Below the pieces are notes generated by a model that was given only the letters and a program-made list of their open reading frames with translations, was not told where the DNA came from and did not search any database. Below, piece by piece: positions 4,015-53,675 of a stretch of 64,000 nucleotides of DNA. The position numbers were made by a program, and so were the translations under genes. Where the stretch lies: assembly GCA_045633565.1 (NCBI GenBank), contig JAZQYO010000007.1, positions 8,724-72,723 on the forward strand, in the 5' to 3' direction. Every line of letters starts with the position of its first letter. Position 1 is the stretch's first letter. Source of the DNA: Clostridia bacterium. GTDB lineage: Bacteria > Bacillota > Clostridia > RUG12999.

Positions 4015-4263
4015 ATACAAAAAAATTCCTTCCGCCCACATTGGGACGGAAGGACAATTCCTTACGCGGTACCACCCAAATTCCGGATAAAAATCCGGCA
4101 CTTTTTAAAGATATAACGGTCTTTCCCGGCAAACCCTACTGGCCTTTCAGGTTTGCAGCTCCTGAGCGAACTTCATCTGTCGCTTTTCGCAGAACAGCTT
4201 TCAGCCTGTGGCATGTTCCTCTCTTGGCGTGCTGACGCAGATTACTTTTCTCAATCACAGCTT
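4015..4263 (-). promoter_or_regulatory. T-box riboswitch leader (Phe-specific) with promoter and intrinsic terminator, upstream of pheS
   Basis: Minus-strand sequence AATTTGGGTGGTACCGCG (plus 4065-4082) matches the conserved T-box motif. A terminator hairpin TCCTTCCG..CGGAAGGA (4027-4054) is followed by T-run on the minus strand. A UUC triplet sits in the candidate specifier region (..GAAGUUCGCU..). Promoter TTGCAA(4294-4299)-17-TAAAAT(4271-4276) lies on the minus strand. Confidence 0.8.
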
Positions 4264-4302
4264 TTAAAACATTTTATCACATATTTTTGTCATTTGCAAG
4301 TG

Positions 4303-11766: not shown

Positions 11767-11910
11767 GATATTTTCCTCTTAAAAAAGTATTACTATAATC
11801 ATATCACAGTTTAACTTTTTTTACAATAGCATCCGGCAAAAAATTGACACAAACTTCCCCTTGTGATAAAATATTTTAAAACACAAAAATGAATACGAAG
11901 TGATGAAACA

Positions 11911-12633
11911 ATGAAAAAAACAGAAATTTTAAAATATCTTAAATCCCTGCCCGGCGAAGAGTTTGTATCGGAAGTGGCAAGGCTTTTTGGCGAGGGCGAA
12001 GAAATCCCGGCGTCTATGATTAAAAGGCTGGAGGAATATAACAGGGTGCTTGGCATGAGAGAGTTTGACCTGTCAAAAGGAACACTTGTTGCCGGCGTTG
12101 ACGAGGCAGGCAGAGGTCCGCTTGCGGGGCACGTTTATACCGCAGCGGTGATACTTCCCCAAAACGTAGTGATTGAGGGACTTAACGATTCAAAAAAACT
12201 GAGCGAGAAAAAGCGTGATGAACTTTACGATATAATTATTGAAAAAGCGCTTTATTTTAACATTGTCTATTCCGACTGCGAAACTATTGACAAAATAAAT
12301 ATCCGCAATGCCACATTAAACGCCATGAAAGAGGCTGCCGAGGGACTTCCCGTCAGACCGGACAAACTGCTTATAGACGGAAATGCGCTCCCCAAAACCG
12401 ACATTCCCTGCGAGTTTGTGATAAAAGGAGATTCAAAAAGCATGGCAATTGCGGCGGCGTCCATTCTCGCAAAGGTGACAAGGGACAGATACATAAAGGA
12501 AATGGACGAAATTTACCCCGAGTACGGGTTTTCTAAAAACAAAGGCTATGGCACTGCAGACCATATAGAAGCAATCAAAAAATATGGCCCCTGCCCTATC
12601 CACAGAAGAACTTTCATTAAGAATTTCATATAA
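11911..12633 (+). CDS. rnhB: ribonuclease HII
   Basis: 240 aa with GVDEAGRGPLAGHV catalytic motif and DSK..S motifs. Has an N-terminal extension as in Bacillus RnhB. Confidence 0.9.
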   Translation: MKKTEILKYLKSLPGEEFVSEVARLFGEGEEIPASMIKRLEEYNRVLGMREFDLSKGTLVAGVDEAGRGPLAGHVYTAAVILPQNVVIEGLNDSKKLSEKKRDELYDIIIEKALYFNIVYSDCETIDKINIRNATLNAMKEAAEGLPVRPDKLLIDGNALPKTDIPCEFVIKGDSKSMAIAAASILAKVTRDRYIKEMDEIYPEYGFSKNKGYGTADHIEAIKKYGPCPIHRRTFIKNFI

Positions 12634-12636
12634 TTA

Positions 12637-12662
12637 AAAGCCACCCGATGGGTGGCTTTTTT
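12637..12662 (+). terminator. rnhB terminator (AAAGCCACCC-gat-GGGTGGCTTTTTT)
   Basis: Hairpin plus T-run 4 nt after the rnhB stop. Confidence 0.75.
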
Positions 12663-15365: not shown

Positions 15366-15404
15366 TGTTGATTTTACCTAAAATTCTATAAGGAGGAAAT
15401 GAAA

Positions 15405-15653
15405 ATGGCTGACAGAGAAAGAATGGACAGACCTCACGCAAGACGTACAAAGAAAAAAGTTTGTGCTTTCTGCGCTGACAAGGTTGAATCTATCGATTAT
15501 AAAGATGTTGCAAAGCTCCGCAAATATGTTTCTGAAAGAGGCAAGATTCTTCCCAGAAGAATCACAGGCTGCTGCGCAAAACATCAGCGTCAGGTAACTA
15601 CCGCAATTAAAAGAGCAAGAATGATTGCACTCCTGCCCTTCTCGGTAGACTAA
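15405..15653 (+). CDS. rpsR: 30S ribosomal protein S18
   Basis: [37 protein letters not shown] matches the S18 family. ATG 15405 has better AGGAGG spacing than the ATG at 15399. Confidence 0.95.
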
Positions 15654-15666
15654 TTAAAAATTTAAA

Positions 15667-15963
15667 GCCACCCTTCGGCGGTTAGTCTTAGGGAGGAATC
15701 GGTTTCCGAACCACATTTTTAGTTTATACTACATCAAAAAGCACCATAATACGTCAGTATTATGGTGCTTTTAATCTTTATATAATTCTAAAAATCTGCT
15801 TTCGGAAACTGCCGGTGCATCACAAAAAACATTATTTTTTGTGCAGAGCAAGGAAAAACTGTGCGGAAATCCTGTCGGATTCTAAACGGTTTTGACGCCG
15901 CTATGTGCTAAAATAATGTTTTTTGGACGAATAATCCCTAAAACTAACCGCCGCTTGGGTGGC
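15667..15963 (+). repeat. inverted-repeat-bounded ~300-bp non-coding element (MITE-like or long structured RNA) directly after rpsR
   Basis: GCCACCCTTCGGCGGTTAG (15667-15685) is the near-perfect reverse complement (15 of 19 bp) of CTAACCGCCGCTTGGGTGGC (15944-15963), which is followed by T6. Nested inner inverted repeats: CGGTTTCCGAA at ~15701 pairs with TTCGGAAACTGCCG at ~15802, and a perfect hairpin GCACCATAATA-cgtcag-TATTATGGTGC sits at 15741-15768. Confidence 0.45.
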
Positions 15964-15972
15964 TTTTTTGTT

Positions 15973-16260
15973 TTAATTGATATTAATAATTATTTTATCT
16001 TCTGCTGTCGCTAAGAATTTTTCTTCTTCATAATCACAGAAATTGCAAATAACCGCATTATATTCTTCCATTTTAGGTTCTGTAATATAAAACACTTTGG
16101 CGCCTTGCTTTTCTACCGCCTTTTCACACATTTTTTCAAAACTGCTTGTTCCCCTGCTGTGAAATTCTTTAACTCCCCAATTTATCAATAGCCTTACTTT
16201 GTTAAAAATAATTTCCTCCGCATCAAACCCTATCTCATCCCCAACAATATAACATTTCAT
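15973..16260 (-). pseudogene. truncated DUF1273 / YpsA-like SLOG-family fragment
   Basis: 96-105 aa. CYIVGDEIG..GVKEFHSRGTSSFEKMCEKAV..KQGAKVFYI parallels VCFTGRR..GAVHFISGMALGVDMWAAEAI..EKGLDITLE of the full-length DUF1273 gene at 49176-49664. It covers only the N-terminal two-thirds of that gene. Confidence 0.4.
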
Positions 16261-16351
16261 AAAAAACACCTCACTTTCTATATTACACATATACCATATA
16301 ACACTTTTGTTGAATTGTCAATATGTAATATAGCAAATATACTATATACGG

Positions 16352-16573
16352 GTGATGATTTTGAATTACAATATTAAAGTTGTTTTGGATGAGATGTTGC
16401 TTTCGCGCGGAAAAAGTAGATATTGGTTATCAAAAGAAACCGGCATACATTATAAAACCATAGACAGCTATTATAAAAACAAAATTAAACGATACGAAGC
16501 CGATTCCATTTTAAAAATCTGTCTCGCTTTAGATTGCGAAGTTGGCGACATTATTAAAATTGTAAAATGCTAA
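16352..16573 (+). CDS. small XRE-family (Cro/C1-type) HTH DNA-binding protein
   Basis: 73 aa with HTH segment (WLSKETGIHYKTIDSYYKN). Overlaps the next HTH gene by 7 nt. Confidence 0.55.
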   Translation: MMILNYNIKVVLDEMLLSRGKSRYWLSKETGIHYKTIDSYYKNKIKRYEADSILKICLALDCEVGDIIKIVKC

Positions 16574-16821
16574 ATAAAAAAATCTTAATTTCAGAGACCT
16601 TTAGTCAGAATTTAAAAAGAATAAGAAAAAATTCCGGTCTTACGCAGGAGCAAACAGTTGCCAGACTTCAGCTTATGGGGTCTCCCATCAGCAGAAGCAC
16701 CTATTCTCTTATTGAAATGGGTAGAGGTAATATATTTGTAAGCGATTTAGTAGGACTTCAACAAATATTTAATGTTGATTTCAAAGAGTTCTTTGAAGAC
16801 ATTTCTGTAATGAGAGATTAA
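16567..16821 (+). CDS. small XRE-family HTH DNA-binding protein
   Basis: 84 aa with LKRIRKNSGLTQEQTVARLQLMG.. helix-turn-helix. Confidence 0.55.
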   Translation: MLNKKILISETFSQNLKRIRKNSGLTQEQTVARLQLMGSPISRSTYSLIEMGRGNIFVSDLVGLQQIFNVDFKEFFEDISVMRD

Positions 16822-16855: not shown

Positions 16856-17362
16856 ATGGATTTACCGAAACGAAAACGGACGAGATTAAAAGAATATGAT
16901 TATTCAACGCCCGGCGCATATTTTATTACGATATGCGTAAAAGACAAAAAACATTTGTTAGGCAAAATTGTAGGGTGCGGCGATTTCGACGCACCGAAGA
17001 TTATGTTGTCCGGATACGGTCAAATCATTAACAAACACATCAACCTGATGAATGAAAAATATTCACACATTAGTGTAGATAAATATGTAATTATGCCAAA
17101 TCATATTCATTTAATTATTAATGTAAAGGATTATAAAAACGGTGCGTCGGAAACCGCCGCACCCTACAATAACGAAATCTCCAAATTTGTATCACTGTTC
17201 AAAAGATTTTGTAACAAGGAATTTGGTGAAAATATATTCCAGCGGTCATATCACGACCATATTATACGTGGTGAAAAGGATTACAAAAAAATCTGGGAAT
17301 ATGTTGATACGAATGTGCAGAGATGGGAAATGGATTGCTTTTATAATAATGAAAGGTCGTAG
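16856..17362 (+). CDS. IS200/IS605-family Y1 (HUH) transposase-like protein, RAYT / TnpA_REP-like
   Basis: 168 aa with HUH motif (MPNHIHLII), catalytic Tyr motif (QRSYHDHIIR) and N-terminal YDYS..GAYFIT. Typical Y1_Tnp size. No typical IS200 terminal hairpins or tnpB are present. Instead it follows two HTH genes. Confidence 0.8.
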   Translation: MDLPKRKRTRLKEYDYSTPGAYFITICVKDKKHLLGKIVGCGDFDAPKIMLSGYGQIINKHINLMNEKYSHISVDKYVIMPNHIHLIINVKDYKNGASETAAPYNNEISKFVSLFKRFCNKEFGENIFQRSYHDHIIRGEKDYKKIWEYVDTNVQRWEMDCFYNNERS

Positions 17363-24807: not shown

Positions 24808-24909
24808 TTCATTCTCCTAAAACAGGGGAGAACACCCCTTTTTACTACATATATAATTATATCACCCTTTTTCCATCTTTTCAAGGGTTTTACTACATTT
24901 ATTATAAAA

Positions 24910-24925
24910 TGTTTCACGTGAAACA
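24910..24925. promoter_or_regulatory. parS centromere site (TGTTTCACGTGAAACA)
   Basis: Perfect 16-bp palindrome matching the Firmicutes parS consensus tGTTtCACGTGAAACa, about 100 nt upstream of parA. Confidence 0.8.
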
Positions 24926-24948
24926 TTGTTAAACACAAAAAAGAGGAA

Positions 24949-24964
24949 TGTTTCACGTGAAACA
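24949..24964. promoter_or_regulatory. second parS site embedded in a 32-bp perfect palindrome (24941-24972) that also forms the gyrA terminator
   Basis: AAGAGGAATGTTTCACGTGAAACATTCCTCTT. On the minus strand it is followed by TTTTGTGTTT, 14 nt after the gyrA stop. Confidence 0.8.
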
Positions 24965-24985
24965 TTCCTCTTTTAATAAGGTCAT

Positions 24986-37995: not shown

Positions 37996-38011
37996 GTGTA
38001 TGAAAATTTAA

Positions 38012-38150
38012 TCGGGGTGCTGATTTTCGGCTGAGAAAGCGATTGCTTAACCCGCGAACCTGATACGGATAATGCCGGCGTAGGAATAATAATCGATTAT
38101 TTTGCTCTACTGGGATTTCCCGGTGGAGCTTTTTTAATCCATCAGGAATT
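38012..38150 (+). promoter_or_regulatory. TPP (thiamine pyrophosphate) riboswitch
   Basis: GGGGTGC..GGCTGAGA..AACCC..GAACCTGATACGGATAATGCCGGCGTAGGAA matches the THI-element consensus (CTGAGA, ACCTGATCTGGATAATGCCAGCGTAGGGAA). The downstream gene is thiT. Coordinates are approximate (+/-2). Confidence 0.85.
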
Positions 38151-41834: not shown

Positions 41835-41919
41835 TGGTGGAGAGAGATGGATTCGAACCATCGAAGGCGGTGCCAACAGATTTACAGTCTGCCCCCTTTG
41901 GCCACTCGGGAACCTCTCC
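41835..41919 (-). tRNA. tRNA-Tyr (anticodon GTA), 85 nt with long variable arm, CCA encoded
   Basis: Reverse complement GGAGAGGTTCCCGAGTGGCCAAAGGGGGCAGACTGTAAATCTGTTGGCACCGCCTTCGATGGTTCGAATCCATCTCTCTCCACCA gives a cloverleaf with 7-bp acceptor, CUGUAAA anticodon loop, GATGG-TTCGAAT-CCATC T-arm and 13-nt variable arm. Confidence 0.9.
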
Positions 41920-41925
41920 AAAAAA

Positions 41926-42001
41926 TGGAGCTGGTGATGGGACTCGAACCCGCGACCTGCTGATTACAAATCAGCTGCTCTACCAATTGAGCTACACCAG
42001 C
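41926..42001 (-). tRNA. tRNA-Thr (anticodon TGT), 76 nt, CCA encoded
   Basis: Reverse complement GCTGGTGTAGCTCAATTGGTAGAGCAGCTGATTTGTAATCAGCAGGTCGCGGGTTCGAGTCCCATCACCAGCTCCA. Acceptor, D and anticodon stems pair. The T-stem has one C-A mismatch. It lies 6 nt upstream of tRNA-Tyr on the same strand. Confidence 0.85.
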
Positions 42002-42088
42002 GCATTTTTTACTTTGTTGTCATAAGCGACTTACTCATTATACTACAGATTATTTGCTTTGTCAATATATTTTATTAATTTTTTTCAA

Positions 42089-43330
42089 TTATTTTTTCAC
42101 AGTCGCTTGCTTTATTACAATGGGTTCAACCGGAGCTGATGTTTTGCTGCTAACCTCAACATCCTGCAATGCCTCAATGTGCTCCATACCTTTTGTAACC
42201 TTGCCGAATGCAGCATAGGCTCCATCAAGGTCGGTGCAGTCTTCAAAACAAATGAAAAACTGGCTTGATGCGGAATTGTTATGTTCGGCACGTGCCATGG
42301 AAACCACACCTTTTTCGTGTGACAATTCATTTATTATATTGTTTGCAGAAAATTCGCCTGTTATGTTATGCTCAGAACCGCCTGTGCCGTCGCCATTCGG
42401 GTCACCACCCTGGAGAACAAAGCCGGGAATCAATCTGTGAAAGGTAAGTCCGTCATAAAAACCGGCGTTTACAAGCGCAACAAAGTTAGCACAGGTCTGA
42501 GGAGCGTGCTGCGGGTAAAGTGTAATTTCAAATTTATTGCCGTTTTCAAGAGTGAACTCCACTACTGTGTTTTCAGCAGGAATCTGTTCTTCGGTATATG
42601 TAATCTTGTTCTGCTCATATTTTTCAATGGTTTTTTCGTAGTTGTCGTTATATTCTTTAATCAGTCTGTCATACTCATCTCTTATTTTTTCGGCAACACC
42701 GCAAAGACGGTTTATAACAGTAACCGCTTCGGCTCTTGTTCCGGAGTCTGACGCATTGAAATTTCCGTTTTCGTCACCGAAGACAATACCGCAGTATGCA
42801 ACGTTTAATACAGAGTTGCCGACATTATTTGAATAAGTTTCAAAGATTGCGGCTTTGTCGTTAAATTTGGTATTATTTTCGAAAAGATATAAAACTTTTC
42901 CTGCATCAAAATAGTTGACGAGGGCGCAGTTGATGATATAAGCCATTTCCCATCTTTTTATAGGGAGGTCATAATTTTCTGCGGACATAACTGCAGGGCT
43001 TATTTGGTCATATACTTCACCAGTCATTGCATAAAGATATGCCTCTAACGCAAAATTATAGTATTTTTCTGCCCAATGCTCCGCACCTTCAAGCTCGGGA
43101 ATATTTTCAAAAAGAGCACAGGTAACCATTTTCATGAATTCTGCTCTGGAAACGGTGTCATCTGGGCGGAAAGTGCCGTCATCATAACCGTTTGTAACCC
43201 CATTTTCGTACGCTTTGCCAATTTCATCTATTGCCCAATGACCTTCAATATCCGAAAATGGCAGCTCAGCAGCAAACACCGAGCTTAAGGAAAGTGTAAG
43301 TAATATTAAAAAAGAAATAAATTTTTTCAT
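42089..43330 (-). CDS. secreted SLH-domain protein fused to a cyclophilin-type peptidyl-prolyl cis-trans isomerase
   Basis: Signal peptide plus S-layer-homology repeats (FSDIEGHWAIDEI.., ..GYDDGTFRPDDTVSRAEF..) and a C-terminal cyclophilin domain (FHRLIPGFVLQGGDP..GTGG..). Confidence 0.8.
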   Translation of the reverse strand: MKKFISFLILLTLSLSSVFAAELPFSDIEGHWAIDEIGKAYENGVTNGYDDGTFRPDDTVSRAEFMKMVTCALFENIPELEGAEHWAEKYYNFALEAYLYAMTGEVYDQISPAVMSAENYDLPIKRWEMAYIINCALVNYFDAGKVLYLFENNTKFNDKAAIFETYSNNVGNSVLNVAYCGIVFGDENGNFNASDSGTRAEAVTVINRLCGVAEKIRDEYDRLIKEYNDNYEKTIEKYEQNKITYTEEQIPAENTVVEFTLENGNKFEITLYPQHAPQTCANFVALVNAGFYDGLTFHRLIPGFVLQGGDPNGDGTGGSEHNITGEFSANNIINELSHEKGVVSMARAEHNNSASSQFFICFEDCTDLDGAYAAFGKVTKGMEHIEALQDVEVSSKTSAPVEPIVIKQATVKK

Positions 43331-43492
43331 TATAATCGCTCCTTTATCAACTAATTATAAACAACCGGGTCCGATTTGTCAAGATTAATAAAATAATTTT
43401 CAATGACTCTTGCATTTTTTACACAAATATCGTATAATAAAAGTAGGTATATTATTTTTTTGCCGCACACAAGCGGCGGAAGGGAGATTTTT

Positions 43493-43855
43493 ATGGATTT
43501 TATGAATGTTGTAAGAGAAAAAGCGGCAGCACTGGCTCATGGTGCGGTAAAAACTTCAAATGCAGTTGTAGAAACGGTTAAATCCAATCTGGCTATTGCA
43601 GATAAAGAAGCCGAAACCACAAAAATTCTCCGTCAGCTGGGCACACTTATGTATGATGCTTACAAGGATGGCTCAGATGTTGATGCAGATGCAGTTGCAG
43701 AAAAATGTGCAGCTTTAGATGACTATTTCAGCGAAATCGCAGCTTTAAAGGAAAAAGTAGGCGAAATTAAAAACACAAAAACTTGTCCGAAATGCAACGC
43801 AAAGGTTAAGGCGGATTTTAAATTCTGCCCCGTTTGCGGCGAAAAAATGGACTAA
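43493..43855 (+). CDS. zinc-ribbon domain protein
   Basis: 120 aa from ATG 43493 (RBS GGAAGGGAG). C-terminal CPKCNAKVKADFKFCPVCGEK zinc ribbon. Promoter TTGCAT-17-TATAAT lies upstream. Confidence 0.5.
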   Translation: MDFMNVVREKAAALAHGAVKTSNAVVETVKSNLAIADKEAETTKILRQLGTLMYDAYKDGSDVDADAVAEKCAALDDYFSEIAALKEKVGEIKNTKTCPKCNAKVKADFKFCPVCGEKMD

Positions 43856-53600: not shown

Positions 53601-53675
53601 GCCCCCTTAGTTAAATGGATATAACAAGCCCCTCCTAAGGGCTAGTTACAGGTTCGATTCCTGTAGGGGGTGCCA
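53601..53675 (+). tRNA. tRNA-Arg (anticodon CCT), 75 nt, CCA encoded
   Basis: GCCCCCTTAGTTAAATGGATATAACAAGCCCCTCCTAAGGGCTAGTTACAGGTTCGATTCCTGTAGGGGGTGCCA. Acceptor 7 bp (one G-U), D-arm GTTA/TAAC, anticodon stem AGCCC/GGGCT with loop CUCCUAA, T-arm ACAGG-TTCGATT-CCTGT. Terminator hairpin at 53678-53709. Confidence 0.85.

Follow-up and report, generated by a model that had tools for sequence, protein, structure and literature searches.

Downstream of rpsR (ribosomal protein S18) in contig JAZQYO010000007.1 of a Clostridia bacterium lies a 279-bp non-coding element, which is most probably a MITE (a transposable element of miniature size with inverted repeats) of a new family that targets the loops of transcription terminators; the probability of this reading is put at roughly 0.85. 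The stretch analysed, referred to below as the window, comprises 64,000 nucleotides of that contig, and the element lies between the two halves of a terminator hairpin. A preliminary description, made from the letters alone, had proposed a non-autonomous element inserted into a pre-existing terminator loop, and this proposal is supported by empty sites in relatives and by copies at unrelated loci. The features of the region are as follows.

15405–15653 (+): rpsR, the last gene of the rpsF-ssb-rpsR operon (Pfam Ribosomal_S18, E = 6.5e-29)
15664–15673 (+): 5′ half of the host intrinsic terminator, A-tract and stem GCCACCC, partner of 15957–15963
15674–15675: left direct repeat TT, probable target-site duplication (flank co-variation across copies)
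15676–15954: probable MITE, 279 bp, arm A toward rpsR, ends CGGCGGTTAG ... CTAACCGCCG(C); matched end to end by a four-lineage nhmmer profile (E = 2.6e-88)
15676–15701: 26-nt terminal inverted repeat of the left end, CGGCGGTTAGTCTTAGGGAGGAATCG (repeat I1; complementarity to the right repeat 85%)
15702–15814: inner arm A, long imperfect hairpin (minimum free energy and consensus structures; helices 3–5 with 6 compensatory pairs)
15737–15772: arm A tip, perfect 16-bp hairpin, A-tract before and T-tract after (terminator scan; −23.0 kcal/mol on the plus strand, −22.4 kcal/mol on the minus strand)
15821–15927: inner arm B, long hairpin (helices 6–8 with 8 compensatory pairs and two invariant U.G pairs)
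15892–15920 (+): degenerate, outward-facing promoter-like site in arm B, TTGACG-17-AATGTT (consensus match only)
15928–15953: right terminal inverted repeat, 26 nt, CGAATAATCCCTAAAACTAACCGCCG (I1; sequence-type conservation)
15955–15956: right direct repeat TT (flank co-variation across copies)
15957–15969 (+): 3′ half of the host terminator, GGGTGGC stem and T6 (terminator scan; empty-site comparison)
15973–16260 (−): convergent 95-aa gene, function unassigned (called as a 95-aa gene in L001, L002 and L007–L009)

Contigs from several metagenome assemblies, retrieved by exact look-up of the RpsR protein, were compared at the junction behind rpsR. The site is filled in the window, in two contigs that are 99% identical to it (L001 and L002) and in L024, which stops inside the element. 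Empty sites in relatives, a check proposed in the preliminary description, were found beside these in L007/L009, L008 and L010, which encode an identical RpsR and have an uninterrupted terminator without the insert. The empty site reads ...AAAGCCACCC-GAACC-GGGTGGCTTTTTT in L007/L009, GCCACCC-AAAA-GGGTGGC in L008 (stem end and T-run GGGTGGCTTTTTT) and GCCACCC-GTTTC-GGGTGGC in L010, so that three independent lineages have a loop of 4–5 nt where the window holds about 280 extra bases between the half-stems. L007–L009 also keep the same downstream minus-strand gene as the window. Because the 95-aa proteins of L007/L009 are 71–72% identical to that of the window, and their RAYT-like protein about 53%, these contigs represent sister species. 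Insertion rather than loss is the parsimonious direction of change. A nearer empty site was sought by exact look-up of the 95-aa neighbour of the window, and every contig that was readable at the junction proved to be filled. An assembly artefact was discarded as an explanation, because the same insert is present in independent ENA assemblies and in the window.

The host site has the layout of an intrinsic (Rho-independent) terminator and is predicted to be one: in the empty sites, GCCACCC-loop-GGGTGGC-T6 begins 13 nt past the rpsR stop codon, and in the window the same parts are found at 15667–15673 (GCCACCC), 15957–15963 (GGGTGGC) and 15964–15969 (T6). The stop codon of the 95-aa gene lies 3 nt from the T6 run, so that this gene has in common with rpsR the bidirectional terminator that the element splits. 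The preliminary description had likened the outer half-sites to GCCACCC..GGGTGGC terminators elsewhere in the window, and both of these are present: the RNase HII terminator at 12640, which is intact (GCCACCCGATGGGTGGCTTTTTT, that is, GCCACCCGATGGGTGGC-T6), and one at about 39755 (GCCACCGAAAGGTGGCTTTTTT, that is, GCCACCGAAAGGTGGC-T6). The true start of rpsR is at 15405; the ATG at 15399 is too near the AGGAGG, and the 82-aa product that begins at 15405 is recorded in 23 contigs and the 84-aa version in none.

Copies at unrelated loci and their target sites

A pattern of the terminal repeat that fits both ends of the element, CGGCGGTTAGTNTTAGGGANNANTCG, matched 11 contigs among the GTDB species representatives, 9 from the metagenome-assembled genome (MAG) JAZNIU01 and 2 from the MAG JAZSKF01, at unrelated loci. 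Both MAGs are labelled 'Clostridia bacterium', and JAZNIU01 is related to the window organism and syntenic with it (RNase HII 69% identical, other proteins 55–82%). In JAZNIU01, L020 is a full copy, and eight pattern matches lie 113–139 nt from the end of a k141 contig, four contigs finishing in one and the same arm A half and the other four in one and the same arm B half. Identical halves at broken contig ends indicate that the repeat is present at several loci (at least 5) and was recently amplified. The full copy of JAZSKF01 (L017) is 92% identical to L020, and both are 79–80% identical to the copy in the window; copies across lineages are thus 79–92% identical. A fourth lineage, the ENA contig L025, was reached through P0001, a spurious open reading frame (ORF) in the arm B frame, and the corresponding spurious frame in arm A, used as a handle to further copies, returned nothing. 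Exhaustive phmmer searching with P0001 added only P0003, which led to the much diverged relative in ENA contig L026; another match, P0002, is an unrelated repeat protein and was rejected.

In the window itself, the element is single-copy by blastn-short and by the nhmmer profile; one further nhmmer match (43452–43580, E = 0.0045) was rejected as spurious, being located on a promoter and the start of a coding sequence. The multi-copy behaviour proposed as a check in the preliminary description is nevertheless seen in the relatives, with at least 5 sites in JAZNIU01, 2 contigs in JAZSKF01 and the copies in L025 and L026, against 1 copy in 64 kb of the window. A single-copy sequence conserved in position across relatives and devoid of a target-site duplication, which that description had set against a mobile origin, is accordingly not what was found. 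When JGI metagenomes were scanned for a 19-mer taken from the terminal repeat, the only match, at a high-GC Mla-type locus (L022), was a chance one; a scan of viral contigs for the element gave no match, and a distant blastn search of plasmids and phages gave nothing significant. The family occurs in uncultured spore-forming Clostridia.

The k141 short-read assembly is broken by the element: L011, L013, L015, L016, L018, L019 and L021 stop 138–139 nt into it, at its centre. What can be recognised in L026 (1–571) is arm B, the terminal repeat of the right end (GGCGAATTATCCCTAAGATGATCCGCC) and a tip hairpin that resembles that of arm A but has its loop in the opposite sense; the left end is different and cannot be recognised as that of the element. 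This layout may reflect modular reshuffling of arms within the family.

The flanks of the other copies are, like those of the window copy, parts of terminators, and relatives of the element in other gut or rumen Clostridia thus also sit in terminator loops. The flanks ...AAAAATCCGCACAC-GAA|element in L014 and element|AAACTC-GTGTGCGGATTTTT in L021 are a 14/14 complement split by the element; the flank of L013 (GGCTTCAC; AAAAAAAGGCTTCAC-AA|element) pairs with that of L016 (element|AATT-GTGAAGTC-T-run), and the left flank of L020 (AAAAAAGCTCAC|element) with that of L019 (element|TTAT-GTGAGCTTTTT). Flanks for which no partner was retrieved are GC-rich half-stems followed by T-runs (L015, GGGGGGCTTTTTT; L018, CCGGAGAGGGTTTTTT; right flank of L020, GCAAGCTCTTTTTTT), and L025 is flanked by AAAAAACCGCCC ... 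GAGCGGGTTTT. Nearly all flanks consist of one half of a GC-rich stem together with a run of A or T, and 9 of 12 lie 12–30 nt from a stop codon. The host half-stems are complete, with 7/7 pairs in the window and 14/14 in L014/L021, and the element is oriented one way relative to the T-run at four sites and the other way at four. Because terminator loops make up well under 1% of a genome by a rough estimate, this pattern of flanks cannot result from random insertion.

The two flanks of L020 seem to stem from different sites that the assembly has joined, since the left one is a perfect partner of the L019 flank and does not pair with the right one. The split RNase HII terminator of JAZNIU01 (L014, 3700–3843, and L021, 1–200), which holds the element, is joined to a tRNA region; the counterparts in the window (11892–12662 and 41838–43400) are about 30 kb apart, and gene order therefore differs between the window organism and JAZNIU01.

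The sequence common to all copies starts with CGGCGG and ends with CCGCCG, an extra C following in three lineages, and the terminal inverted repeats begin CGGCGGTTAGTCTTAGGGA. Outside these ends, the dinucleotides are TT/TT in the window, AA/AA in L025 and TA/AA in L017; the flanks in JAZNIU01 are all TT, 5 of them next to arm A and 5 next to arm B, with at least 3 reconstructed sites of TT/TT. Because the dinucleotide is equal on both sides of a copy and differs between copies, it behaves as a 2-bp target duplication and not as a part of the element. Deletion of the element together with one repeat restores the loops CTTG in the window and AATT, TTAT and GAGTTTC at the JAZNIU01 sites.

Fold and conservation of the element

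The element is non-coding, with stop codons in all six frames and only spurious short ORFs called on it. As RNA, the 313-nt region is predicted to fold into a Y shape of −136.2 kcal/mol, compared with −68.5 ± 4.4 kcal/mol for shuffled sequences (z = −15.5; 0 of 100 shuffles as good), and the minus strand reaches −133.5 kcal/mol (z = −12.3). The stem of the Y is formed by the terminal repeats, between which lie the two inner arms, A and B, which are unrelated to each other. The tip of arm A consists of AAAAGCACCATAATAC-GTCA-GTATTATGGTGCTTTT. The base of arm B is a perfect 16-bp pair (15823–15838/15910–15925; I3, 100% complementary) with A6 and T6 runs.

All repeats and hairpins named in the preliminary description are present where it had placed them. 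The outer pairing, given there as 15 of 19 positions, is in fact stronger: GCCACCCTTCGGCGGTTAG and CTAACCGCCGCTTGGGTGGC pair at 17/19 with a small bulge and run inward as the 26-nt inverted repeat. A second inverted pair (CGGTTTCCGAA/TTCGGAAACTGCCG) is likewise borne out, at 15700–15710/15801–15814. The hairpin that had been described as a perfect 11-bp terminator is indeed perfect, its length being 16 bp (15737–15772) rather than 11; arm B and its third perfect 16-bp pair had been overlooked.

Conservation was analysed over 102 base pairs in four aligned lineages, in which 96.3% of the cells are paired. Double-sided changes that keep the pairing were found at 14 pairs, compared with 5.2 ± 1.6 in shuffled alignments (0 of 500 as high) and 0–2 when the partners were slid. 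All 14 are in the inner arms; among the 20 pairs of the outer helix, 15 are invariant and none is compensatory. The terminal repeats are therefore kept as sequence and the arms as structure. Conservation as sequence is what would be expected of a transposase-binding site, and selection on the structure of the arms is likely. On the strand in which arm A precedes arm B, two U.G pairs do not vary, and departures from pairing comprise 7 wobble-type and 3 A.C-type events (a manual count; the difference is not significant), an excess that hints at one strand being preferred for folding.

At its tip, arm A has an A-tract, a 12–16-bp stem and a T-tract. In the window, L020 and L025, both strands of this tip have predicted energies of −17 to −25 kcal/mol, with compensatory differences between the three; it is a terminator-like hairpin that can be read in both directions. 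The promoter-like site of arm B, degenerate in the window, reads TTGACG-17-TATGAT in L020 (10/12), TTAACA-17-TATGAT in L017 and TTGACA-17-TATGAT in L025. Promoter-like matches of such stringency are expected about 1.4–1.7 times per region by chance, and an outward promoter in arm B is only a lead. Rfam 15 gave nothing in the element region when the whole window was searched at gathering thresholds, and at permissive E-values only sub-threshold look-alikes of terminator hairpins in 15500–16100 (E ≥ 0.15).

Mechanism and alternative explanations

In the proposed mechanism, the element would have inserted at the central T-rich dinucleotide of the terminator loop common to rpsR and the 95-aa gene, and TT would have been duplicated. 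Mobilisation was most likely performed by a DDE transposase acting in trans and cutting the middle of a palindromic target with a stagger of 2 bp; the terminal repeats are its putative binding sites. A terminator loop would provide a safe landing: the original stem and T-run could still close, because the repeats of the element extend the split stem, and terminator-like hairpins for both directions would come from arm A, at its tip, and from arm B with its A6/T6 base. Transcripts from rpsR or from the 95-aa gene would meet up to three terminator-like hairpins, and termination would be kept at a low cost of insertion. Since up to three such hairpins would be available on either side, the terminator loop would be a harmless landing site for the element.

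Several observations weigh against this interpretation or narrow it. The older copy in L017 lies 3 nt from a complete terminator hairpin and not inside a split one, which is the only clear exception to the target pattern, and its outer dinucleotides are TA/AA. Part of the target bias could be survivorship, insertions elsewhere having been purged. The 2-bp duplication is inferred from flank co-variation at about 6 sites, with no empty site in the same lineage; in the frame of the element, TT is found at 6 sites and AA at 1, a mild asymmetry that a symmetric DDE reaction does not predict. For the genome of the window organism, one copy has been seen in the 64 kb searched. No autonomous element with the same terminal repeats is among the 11 GTDB matches, all of which are short copies, and in about 170 kb of retrieved loci there are no solitary or widely spaced terminal repeats and no linked transposase. 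Template switching within a strand can also produce compensatory changes in quasi-palindromes, with no selection involved, and the terminator and promoter activities are predictions.

A further reading, possible but unlikely, is that the element is a structure-guided transposon, the machinery of which recognises the shape of a terminator (extruded as a hairpin or cruciform, or else a GC-palindrome that is T-rich at its centre) and not its sequence. The element would then carry bidirectional terminators and an outward promoter, and the structure-conserved arms and the invariant G.T pairs of one strand would reflect an intermediate of single-stranded DNA (or RNA), possibly handled by a non-DDE enzyme. 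If so, each insertion would swap a simple terminator for a terminator-insulator-promoter cassette.

Improbable, in comparison with insertion by a DDE transposase, is a REPIN-like, single-strand transposition, in which a Y1/HUH tyrosine transposase would insert the folded single-stranded DNA into an extruded hairpin loop, TT being a cleavage-site motif. A candidate enzyme is encoded by the RAYT-like gene at 16856–17362, 0.9 kb downstream (NCBIfam REP_Tyr_transpos, E = 9.5e-15; Pfam Y1_Tnp, E = 1e-3), although its NCBIfam score of 54.8 is under the family cut-off of 80, L007/L009, which are empty-site lineages, have the gene as well, and the similarity between the element and the RAYT gene or its flanks is not significant (score 24; null 22.1 ± 2.4, maximum 28). 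The REP-like motif of this gene, TTGTAGGG, has no other occurrence in the window and is absent from the element. The location of the target in a loop hints at single-stranded DNA, the conservation of the inner arms by structure would agree with this route, and the two invariant U.G (G.T) pairs, with 7 events against 3, hint at one folding strand, but this strand asymmetry is statistically not significant. The dinucleotide is TT at 6 of 7 sites in the element frame; however, the co-variation of TT/TT and AA/AA points to duplication and not to a fixed end, and long terminal inverted repeats conserved in sequence are of the DDE type and untypical of IS200/IS605 elements or REPs. Membership in the REP/REPIN class, which is marked by palindromic units of about 20–40 nt that follow a GTAG-type tetranucleotide, form inverted doublets and flank the RAYT gene, was rejected on the points just given for that gene and because the terminal repeat itself is non-palindromic. 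Derivation from IS200/IS605 (PATE type, which has no terminal inverted repeats, no duplication and a fixed tetra- or pentanucleotide) was rejected likewise, since the element has long terminal inverted repeats and its left flanks share only the co-varying dinucleotide.

It is very improbable that the element, although of mobile origin, is now domesticated as a portable terminator or insulator and kept by selection for bidirectional termination and for a restart of transcription from arm B. The presence of up to three terminator-like hairpins per direction (arm A tip, arm B and the reconstituted outer stem), the outward TTGAC(G/A)-17-TATGAT sites in three lineages, the structure-type conservation of the inner arms and the fixation of the element in all contigs seen of the window's lineage would agree with such a role. 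However, the sister lineages cope with a plain terminator, the promoter-like site in the window is degenerate (AATGTT) and matches of this kind are expected by chance at the rate given above, and identical copies at 5 or more sites in one MAG point to recent selfish spread. Nothing requires domestication.

The alternative offered in the preliminary description, a structured non-coding RNA or 3′-untranslated region (UTR) element that is specific to the rpsF-ssb-rpsR operon and closed by a long stem, is hardly tenable. The very stable fold (z = −15), the compensatory changes in the arms and the co-orientation with rpsR in the window would be consistent with it, but it is contradicted by sister lineages in which RpsR is identical and this locus is empty, and by copies downstream of unrelated genes in both orientations relative to the flanking terminator; moreover, both strands fold about equally well, and no Rfam family matches. 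Other candidates were rejected, namely an integron attC site (wrong size, R and L boxes absent), a remnant of a group II intron or retron (no reverse transcriptase, no Rfam match) and a ribozyme-based retro-element (no ribozyme match).

Under the favoured reading, that of a MITE mobilised by a DDE transposase, what is noteworthy is the combination of near-exclusive insertion in terminator loops, built-in bidirectional terminator-like hairpins, and ends kept as sequence beside arms kept as structure. An element that lands nearly only in terminator loops and whose own hairpins rebuild termination would find a 'safe harbour' in which it does little harm, which bears on the persistence of selfish elements in compact genomes. 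The target rule (GC stem, T-rich loop, GC stem, 2-bp duplication), if true experimentally, would be a specificity for a type of structure; it could help to identify the transposase and might perhaps be exploitable. Interest would rise further if the transposase recognises the shape of the terminator or if a single-strand mechanism is involved. In practical terms, the element adds about 280 nt of very stable structure to 3′ UTRs; it can mislead the prediction of terminators, small RNAs and ORFs, the spurious ORFs P0001 and P0003 having been called on it, and the family breaks short-read assemblies of the MAGs that carry it, with contigs ending about 139 nt into the element.

Relation to known elements and neighbouring features

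The element belongs to a new family within a familiar class, the bacterial MITEs. Reviews of bacterial MITEs and small repeats (PMC10969869, PMC3184786) describe none that targets terminator loops. Like the MITEs and small palindromic repeats treated there (Correia/NEMIS, ERIC, RUP, BOX, bcr1, Nezha and Chunjie; PMC10969869, PMC3184786), it is shorter than 300 bp, has no ORF, ends in terminal inverted repeats and is flanked by a short direct repeat; it is likewise multi-copy in intergenic DNA, with filled and empty sites between relatives and with transcripts predicted to form very stable stem-loops. In contrast to these, it has no sequence relation to any of them, and it is Y-shaped, with two unrelated arms conserved by compensatory changes, instead of a single long hairpin.

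The inverted repeats of IS30 are about 26 bp long. The hot spots of IS30 are near-palindromic; insertion takes place at their central 2 bp and leaves 2-bp direct repeats (PMC9333248). The geometry of the element, which sits at the middle 2 bp of a target that is likewise nearly palindromic, fits this behaviour (PMC9333248), and no transposase is linked to the element. The hot spots of IS30 are defined by a sequence consensus, whereas the targets of the element share only the form of a GC-rich stem, a short T/A-rich loop and a GC-rich stem. The relation to IS30 is therefore one of functional analogy only.

Three other systems choose similar sites. IS1272/TnSha1 of the staphylococci (IS1182 family) targets terminator hairpins in both orientations and without a primary-sequence consensus, making a blunt cut in the stem; part of the hairpin is deleted, and the target is not duplicated (PMC4923244). 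It resembles the present element in being a Firmicute element that chooses terminator hairpins in both orientations; however, the latter leaves the stems intact, inserts in the loop and has 2 bp repeated, which is not targeting of the IS1182 type. The REP-targeting insertion sequences (IS1397, ISKpn1, IS621 and ISPpu9/10) insert specifically in extragenic palindromes downstream of genes (PMC1525189). These are autonomous elements of the IS3 and IS110 families that recognise one repeated family of palindromes, REP, whereas the element is a MITE and its targets are unrelated single-copy terminators. Finally, SPRITE of Streptococcus pneumoniae is a small repeat with the look of a Rho-independent terminator, and it is found preferentially right behind genes; it is about 105 bp long, with an 18-bp duplex, AAAA/TTTT ends only and no known empty site or duplication (PMC3049150). 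Both are small, terminator-like Firmicute repeats near gene ends, but the present element has long terminal repeats and proven empty sites, and it sits inside host terminators rather than replacing them.

A small gene cluster is kept beside rpsR at 15973–16821, consisting of the 95-aa gene on the minus strand, the product of which gave no match in Pfam and NCBIfam searches, and two small divergent helix-turn-helix (XRE-type) genes; the RAYT-like gene follows downstream. A 29-nt imperfect palindrome (16275–16336) lies in the promoter region shared by the 95-aa gene and the helix-turn-helix genes. In the distant relatives L003–L006, the small cluster is absent, and SpoIIP follows rpsR instead. 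The RAYT-like gene (16856–17362) holds two inverted REP-like units within its own coding sequence (16967–16996 and 17140–17170), on either side of the codons for the HUH motif, each consisting of TTGTAGGG and then a small GC hairpin. The core repeat of 21 nt is 95% complementary, and about 0.002 such repeats per 64 kb are estimated to arise by chance. The orthologue in L007/L009 (53% identical) has the same TTGTAGGG/CCCTACAA arrangement with other hairpin sequences (L007, 1700–1726 and 1784–1810).

Elsewhere in the window, two adjacent copies of a perfect 20-nt palindrome, AATGTTTCACGTGAAACATT, are located 19 nt apart at 24908–24974, and a perfect palindrome of 18 nt overlaps them; the arrangement resembles paired operator sites of some regulator. 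The Rfam search of the window also identified ordinary RNAs, namely a T-box leader (131 bits), a TPP riboswitch (70 bits) and three tRNA genes, the RNA features being located at 4039–4267 (−), 38003–38104 (+), 41838–42001 (−) and 53601–53672 (+).

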